DNA from: Escherichia phage vB_EcoM-S1P5QW
Sequence record: OL956808.1
DNA length: 64,000 nt
Direction: 5' to 3' (one strand)
Shown here: positions 7,890 to 8,586 of the stretch, one piece after another
Position numbering within the stretch: the first letter of the stretch is position 1
Layout of the letters: each line of letters starts with the position of its first letter
Position numbers and translations under genes: made by a program
The notes under the pieces: generated by a model
The model's input: only the letters and a program-made list of their open reading frames with translations
Database searches by the model: none
Told to the model about the DNA's origin: nothing

Positions 7890-8131
7890 TGTCTGAACAA
7901 ACTATTGAACAAAAACTGTCTGCTGAAATCGTAACTCTGAAGTCTCGTATTCTTGATACGCAGGACCAGGCGGCTCGTCTGATGGAAGAATCCAAAATTC
8001 TGCAAGGAACTTTGGCTGAAATCGCTCGTGCAGTAGGTATCACTGGCGATACTATCAAAGTTGAAGAAATCGTTGAAGCTGTCAAGAATCTTACTGCTGA
8101 ATCTGCTGATGAAGCAAAAGATGAAGAATAA
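7889..8131 (+). CDS. 57A: tail fiber assembly chaperone gp57A
   Basis: 80-aa acidic coiled-coil protein directly after gene 1. Confidence 0.8.
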
Positions 8132-8586
8132 TGGAATTTAAAGACTTTTCAACGGGTCTTTATGTAGCAGCTAAGTTTTCAGAATTAACACTTGATGCGC
8201 TGGAAGAACTCCAGCGCTCTTTACGTGTTCCTAATCCAGTTCCTAGAGAAAAAATTCATTCGACCATATGTTATTCGAGAGTAAATGTTCCATATGTTCC
8301 ATCGAGTGGAAGTTTTGAAGTAGCTTCTTCTGGGCATTTAGAAGTATGGAAAACACAAGACGGATCGACTCTTGTACTTGTGCTAGATTCTGAATATCTG
8401 CGCTGTCGACACATGTATGCGCGGGCACTAGGTGCTACACATGATTTTGATGATTACACACCGCATATAACATTGTCTTATAATGTTGGGCCCTTATCAT
8501 TTAGCGGTGATGTACAAATTCCGGTTGTACTTGACCGTGAATACAAAGAGCCTCTTAAACTCGATTGGGCAGATGATTTAAAATAA
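8131..8586 (+). CDS. 57B: gp57B (2H-phosphoesterase-like; reported as the anti-CBASS nuclease Acb1 in T4)
   Basis: 151 aa after 57A; contains H-x-T/S motifs (HSTICYS, HITLSY) typical of 2H phosphoesterases. Confidence 0.75.

Follow-up and report, generated by a model that had tools for sequence, protein, structure and literature searches.

The 64,000-nucleotide stretch of Escherichia phage vB_EcoM-S1P5QW analysed here (sequence record OL956808.1; "the window" in the following means this whole stretch) is, with a probability of about 93 % as judged from its sequence, part of a T4-like (Tequatrovirus) genome with the usual T4 complement of small early counter-defence and exclusion genes. The genes in question are those for Acb1 (gene 57B), Acb2 (vs.4), Dmd, Spackle (sp), Imm and RI. 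All open reading frames (ORFs) named in an initial annotation of the window, which was made from the letters alone, are present at exactly the positions given there and lie on the + strand. They are orthologues of the corresponding T4 genes, with a significant similarity in Pfam, PDB and tblastn comparisons which is far beyond chance. Each of the named genes was already known from T4, and the copies found here are nearly identical. Their positions, their lengths in amino acids (aa) and the matches by which they were recognised are:

8131-8586, + strand: acb1 (gene 57B), 151 aa; Pfam Acb1 (PF23474), PDB 7T26 and identity to T4
18986-19252, + strand: acb2 (vs.4), 88 aa counted from the ATG; Pfam Acb2_Tad1_hairpin and PDB 7UQ2
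23015-23308, + strand: rI (antiholin), 97 aa; Pfam Antiholin (PF24205) and PDB 6PSK
55039-55290, + strand: imm, 83 aa; Pfam Imm_superinfect and PHROG 'immunity to superinfection'
60112-60294, + strand: dmd (61.5), 60 aa; Pfam Dmd and PDB 5HY3_B
60614-60907, + strand: sp (61.3, Spackle), 97 aa; Pfam T4_Spackle and PDB 6X6O

A tblastn comparison of 114 proteins of the T4 reference (NC_000866) with the window showed that it is collinear with T4 in reverse orientation, over a range that extends from gene 5.4 to gene 61 and further; about 100 collinear genes were found, mostly with a protein identity of 95-100 %. The named ORFs are 94-99 % identical to the T4 reference proteins over their full length in this comparison. 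Two segments were compared as DNA, 3 kilobases (kb) around 57B and 25 kb at the opposite end of the window; hundreds of Tequatrovirus genomes match them, the best with ~97-98 % identity, and none of the database records is identical. Each of the named ORFs matches a single Pfam family dedicated to it. The Pfam E-values of the named ORFs and their neighbours lie between 7.7e-16 and 1.5e-136, every match exceeding its gathering cut-off, and the PDB matches of the named ORFs have E-values from 1e-36 to 4e-62. The PHROG names are concordant for the named genes except for 'RNA ligase' on 57B. The lists of substitutions relative to T4 are short, and none of the changes affects a residue known as functional. 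Identity, synteny and the retention of key residues are demonstrated by these comparisons, and the activity of the particular alleles is deduced: since the proteins are 94-100 % identical to characterised T4 proteins, they would be expected to work by the same mechanisms.

The product of gene 57B matches the Pfam family Acb1 over the complete profile (positions 1-144 of 144; E = 2.6e-60, 202.7 bits, cut-off 27) and Acb1 of Erwinia phage FBB1 (PDB 7T26) with E = 4e-62, and all of its 151 residues are identical to residues 2-152 of T4 57B (NP_049750.1). The HxT/HxT tetrad, which was defined for T4 Acb1 (PMC9117128), is kept as HST at position 43 (H43/T45) and HIT at position 112 (H112/T114). As the numbering of the window protein is that of T4 minus 1, these residues are the equivalents of T4 H44/T46/H113/T115. 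The sole difference of acb1 from T4 lies upstream of the protein, where the first ATG annotated in T4 reads ATA because the stop codon of 57A is TAA and not TGA; with this ATG lost, the product starts at the second Met, at position 8131. T4 Acb1 was found by activity-guided fractionation as an enzyme degrading 3'3'-cyclic GMP-AMP (cGAMP); it blocks the effectors of CBASS, the antiphage signalling system based on cyclic oligonucleotides, and an H44A/H113A mutant is inactive (PMC9117128). The published function thus agrees with the assignment of 57B as Acb1. Because of its complete identity to the assayed T4 enzyme, the window protein probably acts in the same way, as a metal-independent 2H phosphoesterase which would cleave the cyclic oligonucleotides of CBASS.

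It is highly improbable that the 57B product is, as its naming in RefSeq and PHROGs implies, a LigT-type enzyme of RNA ligation or RNA repair instead of an anti-CBASS nuclease. The label of phrog_755 is 'RNA ligase', the same name is used for 57B in the T4 RefSeq record and in several relatives, and the 2H phosphoesterase fold is common to the LigT enzymes (PMC9117128). However, this older name was given by homology alone, whereas the T4 protein shared by the window has a demonstrated activity on 3'3'-cGAMP (PMC9117128) and the score for the specific Acb1 family lies far above its cut-off. The label 'RNA ligase' was rejected in favour of Acb1. It is one of several names in the T4 RefSeq record that have the look of spurious automatic labels, the others being 'molybdopterin-guanine dinucleotide biosynthesis protein MobD' for mobD.4, 'starvation-inducible transcriptional regulator' for rI.-1 and 'iduronate sulfatase' for imm.1.

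The identification of the vs.4-position gene as acb2 had initially been made from synteny only, vs.5 and vs.3 being its neighbours here as they are in T4, and is now backed by the protein itself. The product matches Pfam Acb2_Tad1_hairpin (PF24729; E = 9.4e-20, 71 bits, cut-off 27) and the structure of T4 Vs.4 (PDB 7UQ2; E = 4e-53), and 83 of its 88 residues (94 %) are those of T4, with the substitutions E13D, L44F, N46S, C50D and F52L. According to the ORF listing, the reading frame can be extended upstream to a TTG at 18950. The protein encoded by acb2, the same gene as vs.4, takes up cGAMP and other cyclic dinucleotides as a hexameric sponge (PMC10449767, PMC12657218); T4 Acb2 binds dinucleotides and does not bind cA3. 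In the Pseudomonas homologue (PaMx33) the pocket contains the stacking tyrosine Y11 and the salt-bridge lysine K26 (PMC10312549). The corresponding Tyr8 and Lys23 of the cyclic-dinucleotide pocket are retained in the window protein with the same KGY motif and the same spacing of 15 residues, from which the equivalence of Y8/K23 and Y11/K26 is inferred. Y37, A57, L60, D61, T64 and T68 are kept as well. The protein would be predicted, like that of T4, to sequester cyclic dinucleotides as a hexamer.

Both dmd and sp belong to a group of genes near one end of the window. Further features of this group, and the gene for the target of Spackle near the other end, are:

60054-60082, + strand: promoter-like site of sigma-70 type (TTTACA-17-TATAGT, extended TG), found by consensus scan only
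60296-60553, + strand: tifA (61.4); identity to T4 gp61.4 and Pfam DUF7279
60907-61533, + strand: adfA (61.2, anti-DarT factor A), 208 aa; Pfam AdfA (PF23813)
2867-4591, - strand: gene 5 (baseplate hub and tail lysozyme, the target of Spackle), 98.4 % identical to T4 gp5

By their sequences, dmd, tifA, sp and adfA are the genes of the published 'anti-TA island' (PMC9391042), and the predicted promoter upstream of dmd-tifA fits the early promoter described there before dmd. The initial annotation had recognised dmd and sp and overlooked tifA between them; the 208-aa protein between sp and the primase gene, which it regarded as uncharacterised, is already known as T4 gp61.2, the anti-DarT factor A (PMC9391042, PMC11257639).

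Dmd is identical to its T4 counterpart in 59 of 60 residues (98 %; substitution I22T) and matches Pfam Dmd (PF17587; E = 1.8e-45, 153.5 bits) as well as T4 Dmd in the structure of its complex with LsoA (PDB 5HY3_B; E = 1e-36). Its T4 counterpart acts against RnlA (PMC9391042), and the window protein would be expected to bind and block the RNases RnlA and LsoA. TifA, encoded directly after dmd, shares 82 of 85 residues with T4 gp61.4 (96.5 %); it possesses Phe41, the weak T4-type allele, and its residues for RNA binding, K55, R56 and R59, are preserved. As an RNA-binding inhibitor of the endoribonuclease ToxN (PMC9391042, PMC10853763), TifA would trap ToxN on RNA. Spackle is 98 % identical to T4 (substitutions A11T and K53E) and matches Pfam T4_Spackle (PF25676; E = 2.1e-44, 150.4 bits) and PDB 6X6O (E = 3e-61). 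It has a signal peptide, and the residues in contact with the gp5 lysozyme (S32, M33, T34, A35, Q37 and N76) are kept. Inhibition of the gp5 lysozyme by Spackle and the residues of the interface have been described (PMC7677548); after export to the periplasm the protein would inhibit the gp5 lysozyme of a superinfecting phage, and the gene for its target, gp5, is part of the window too. AdfA is 97 % identical to T4 gp61.2 and covers the complete Pfam profile PF23813 (positions 1-211 of 211; E = 1.5e-136, 453 bits). Its His165 aligns with the RB69 arginine at the position of the gain-of-function substitution R164H (NINRIASVY in RB69), and histidine at this position is the allele reported to neutralise DarT1 (PMC11257639). 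The protein is therefore likely, on these grounds, to bind a DarT ADP-ribosyltransferase.

Imm and RI, too, are near-identical to T4. Imm matches Pfam Imm_superinfect (PF14373; E = 7.7e-16, 58.2 bits, cut-off 27.9) and differs from T4 in one of 83 residues (99 % identity; substitution A44T). Two hydrophobic stretches, roughly at residues 5-31 and 38-63, can be seen in the sequence, and the protein is presumed to reside in the inner membrane and to block the entry of DNA from superinfecting phage. RI, whose gene is flanked by rI.1 and rI.-1, is identical to T4 in 96 of 97 residues (99 %; substitution M43T) and matches Pfam Antiholin (E = 1.1e-23, 83.3 bits) and the structure of the RI periplasmic domain with holin T (PDB 6PSK; E = 1e-45). 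By binding holin T in the periplasm, it would delay lysis (lysis inhibition).

Three further features are located around imm:

54387-54638, + strand: ORF of 83 aa, phrog_18567; no Pfam match
54651-55031, + strand: imm.1 (predicted lipoprotein, DUF5481), 126 aa; lipobox LTGC with Cys15
55287-55436, + strand: hydrophobic ORF of 49 aa which overlaps the stop codon of imm; phrog_3610, E = 9.5e-26

The lipoprotein beside imm had been listed initially as an uncharacterised candidate for a function related to that of imm. It is the product of T4 imm.1, for which such a function is plausible. Imm.1 is 99 % identical to T4 and matches Pfam DUF5481 (PF17578; E = 5e-72, 239 bits). It has a signal peptide with the LTGC lipobox and a valine at position +2, and the alignment of the family contains the motifs YNPxVKxY and AYRxS as well as the invariant cysteines C89 and C120. 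An exhaustive HMMER search among 1.84 billion representative proteins revealed only 6 clusters of homologues, and a word-indexed search only 3-5 proteins. The family is very small and confined to T4-like phages; with so few homologues it is too small to help structure prediction. The T4 RefSeq name 'iduronate sulfatase' was rejected as spurious, having no support in Pfam, and a literature search on imm.1 gave nothing informative.

A DUF5481 gene lies directly upstream of an Imm_superinfect gene in every context examined, always in the same order and with a gap of 7-61 nucleotides. This adjacency spans four diverged lineages (29-55 % identity by tblastn), and three metagenomic lineages are among the loci examined. 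The pair occurs in three genomic contexts: it lies between gene 43 and gene 42, it is part of the dmd-sp island, or it follows a gene of the Phage_FRD3 family (locus L013). In T4 and in the window the order is 43 - imm.1 - imm - 42. In RB69 (NC_004928; 2003-4156 of the stretch examined) it is dmd - 61.4 - imm.1 - imm - sp - adfA, and in a related contig (L010; 2734-4682) dmd - imm.1 - imm - sp - adfA, without 61.4. Since the two genes occur together both at the 43/42 locus and in the RB69-type dmd-sp island, the pair has moved as a unit. In matching identity bands, the phage records with Imm.1 number 501 of Tequatrovirus type and 155 of Mosigvirus type, and those with Imm 501 and 156, respectively. 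The 49-aa ORF is likewise kept downstream of imm in T4 (98 %) and in two distant loci (L011 and L013; 50-61 %) according to tblastn, and it is absent from the imm loci of RB69 type. It is not annotated in the T4 RefSeq record and appears as an annotated coding sequence in phage Bas45. In front of the 83-aa ORF lie a promoter-like site (54330-54358) and a terminator-like hairpin (54225-54242). Neither T4 nor any other imm.1 locus examined has this ORF, and its slot therefore looks variable.

The conserved adjacency of imm.1 and imm suggests a part of Imm.1 in superinfection exclusion. It can be proposed, tentatively and with odds clearly below even, that Imm.1, Imm and the 49-aa membrane peptide form a co-inherited envelope module, in which Imm.1 would be a third, as yet unrecognised component of T-even superinfection exclusion. 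In such a module Imm.1 might, for example, serve as an anchor or helper of Imm on the periplasmic side, or it might have its place of action at the outer membrane. Several results weigh against such a link. In 344 records with an Imm homologue of greater divergence, tblastn detected no Imm.1, so that Imm probably does not need Imm.1. The AlphaFold2 model of Imm.1, based on an alignment of 6 sequences, is poor (mean predicted local distance difference test score 63.7) and confident only in the C-terminal helical hairpin (residues 81-125). A Foldseek search of the PDB with this model gave no fold match at E <= 0.001, the top matches being unrelated helical fragments. The tie of Imm.1 to Imm is plausible and is drawn from gene order only.

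Imm.1 might also be independent of Imm, as an outer-membrane lipoprotein masking the receptor in the manner of T5 Llp, or with another role in the envelope, and the adjacency would then reflect nothing but shared early transcription; we consider this possible but doubtful. By the sorting rule for lipoproteins the residue at position +2 of the lipobox bears on sorting to the outer membrane, and the valine of Imm.1 fits such a destination. The distant Imm homologues without detectable Imm.1 fit independence as well, and plasmid-borne imm alone has been reported to give exclusion. However, the two genes stay adjacent in the same order, with a distance of 7-61 nucleotides, in lineages down to 29-36 % identity; their transfer between the dmd-sp island and the 43/42 locus involved both of them as a unit, and the comparison with Llp has no support from sequence or fold (Pfam, Foldseek). 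In view of the invariable position beside imm, a role in the same exclusion module at the envelope is the most likely one for Imm.1.

As to the inventory as a whole, some points weigh against reading it as a set of working anti-defence genes. The function of the present alleles is inferred from the T4 proteins. Imm, Spackle and RI serve exclusion between phages and the timing of lysis, not counter-defence against host immunity; because they do not counter the latter, the term 'anti-defence' fits these three only loosely, and of the initial description as counter-defence or exclusion genes the identities hold for all, a role against host immunity not for these. Acb2 is also a liability, since it acts as a trigger of Panoptes (PMC12657218). 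Some T4-type alleles, namely AdfA and TifA with Phe41, are weak or without effect against the systems tested (PMC11257639, PMC9391042, PMC10853763). Single-copy T4 tifA with Phe41 does not overcome toxIN, by which wild-type T4 is restricted unless tifA is amplified (PMC9391042, PMC10853763). A T4 deletion of adfA is without phenotype on DarTG1, since the task is performed there by AdfN, the product of gene 30.3 (PMC11257639); this gene lies outside the window.

From these observations it could be argued that the inventory overstates function, with AdfA, TifA-F41 and possibly Acb2 (in view of its five substitutions) as ineffective conserved passengers and the real counter-defence residing elsewhere, for example in AdfN, DNA glucosylation and internal proteins. 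Natural loss-of-function alleles do exist, as in T2 Vs.4, which lacks the Tyr8 segment (PMC12657218). We regard this explanation as rather unlikely: all ORFs are intact and highly conserved and their functional residues are kept, other DarT homologues have been proposed by the authors as targets of T4-type AdfA (PMC11257639), and T4 Acb1 and Acb2 give rise to measurable phenotypes in T4 itself (PMC9117128, PMC12657218). A T4-like genome with the usual set of probably functional genes remains the preferred reading.

Pfam scans of some 30 additional T4-type genes without a known function (vs.x, e.x, nrdC.x and tk.x) revealed no other named anti-defence family. The matches comprise DUFs, a Macro domain (tk.4), an SLT domain (vs.1) and an RlaP nucleotidyltransferase (nrdC.11); AAA/STAND matches of nrdC.10 are weak and below threshold. 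The window contains genes 2, pin, alpha-gt, 42 and 56. The product of tk.4 (20935-21399, + strand) is just 58 % identical to T4 Tk.4 and thus far more diverged than its neighbours. Macro domains reverse ADP-ribosylation, and a counter-defence role of this protein is conceivable.

The window contains no counterpart of T4 ipI, ipII, ipIII, denV, beta-gt or dam. In place of ipI, ipII, ipIII and denV, internal-protein-like genes are found at 8663-8896 and 16911-17384, with a further candidate at 11895-12368, all on the + strand. Their N termini (MKTFKEFIAE, MKTYQEFITE and MKSYAQFLNE) resemble the capsid-targeting sequence of the T4 internal proteins, and the product of 16911-17384 is 100 % identical to T2 ipIV. 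T4 IPI* is an anti-GmrSD factor; as ipI is missing, the phage may, unlike T4, be sensitive to restriction of the GmrSD type. The beta-glucosyltransferase of T4 is replaced by another enzyme:

56181-57023, + strand: beta-glucosyl-HMC-alpha-glucosyltransferase of T2/T6 type; phrog_842 and Pfam TAGT

The pattern of DNA glucosylation should for this reason be T2/T6-like. The dam gene, which occupies ~900 bp between 61 and 56 in T4, is missing at 62938-62959; segF is also absent, and gp56 (62999-63517) is just 69 % identical to T4.

ARAGORN predicted 11 tRNA genes at 9913-11771 (+ strand) compared with 8 in T4, namely those for Gln, Leu, Gly, Ser, Thr, Met/Ile(CAT), Tyr, Asn, His and Arg and a 94-nt one for Lys(UUU), a long prediction which may be an artefact. 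Extra tRNAs for Tyr, Asn, His and Lys are of the kind reported to rescue phages from anticodon nucleases. A seg-like fragment (10199-10651, + strand) lies inside this cluster. A homing-endonuclease-like gene of 295 aa, not present in T4, is located between rpbA and gene 45 (47672-48559, + strand), and nrdD (36188-38005, + strand) is a single ORF of 605 aa without an intron; T4 segA, mobB, mobC, mobD and I-TevII are absent from the window. The place of mobD is taken by three genes, two tandem paralogues of the y05I/MobD.1 family (24893-25429 and 25439-25960, + strand; Pfam T4_y05I_N plus T4_y05I_C) and, after them, a gene for a membrane protein of 153 aa (25963-26424).

Beyond correct annotation these results are of little importance; their practical value is the prediction of phage behaviour at the level of single residues. 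The phage is predicted to be resistant to CBASS of the cGAMP type by means of intact Acb1 and intact Acb2, to be detectable by Panoptes through Acb2, and to resist RnlAB and LsoAB by means of Dmd. In view of the Phe41 allele of TifA it is probably still sensitive to ToxIN.

In comparison with known systems, the window Acb1 has the same tetrad and the same C-terminal lid as the enzymes of T4 and FBB1 (PDB 7T26/7T27), and its gene lies between 57A and the internal-protein locus as in T4; the gene that follows downstream is, unlike in T4, not ipI but one for another internal protein, and the start of translation at the second Met is a trivial difference. Vs.4 agrees with T4 Vs.4/Acb2 (PDB 7UQ2) in its pocket residues and in the gene order vs.5-vs.4-vs.3 and departs from it by the five substitutions. 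T2 Vs.4 (NC_054931; 6591-6851 of the T2 stretch examined) has a different, shorter N terminus (MKILRD--KPH) without Tyr8, in agreement with the disrupted Acb2 reported for T2 (PMC12657218), whereas the N terminus in the window is of the intact T4 type. RI resembles T4 RI (PDB 6PSK/6PSH) in 96 of 97 residues and in the context rI.1 - rI - rI.-1; it differs by M43T, and holin T, its partner, is not encoded in the window. Imm and Imm.1 occupy the same locus as in T4 with 99 % identity, the lipobox and Cys89/Cys120 of Imm.1 being conserved, and are distinguished from T4 by the additional 83-aa ORF between gene 43 and imm.1. In the island, as in the T4 anti-TA island (Srikant et al. 2022, PMC9391042), the four genes follow one another in identical order and with identical spacing, and their identity to T4 is 96-98 %; the island differs by a few substitutions only, and its TifA keeps the weaker Phe41 allele. 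In RB69-type phages imm.1 and imm are inserted between 61.4/dmd and sp, an insertion from which the island of the window, like that of T4, is free.

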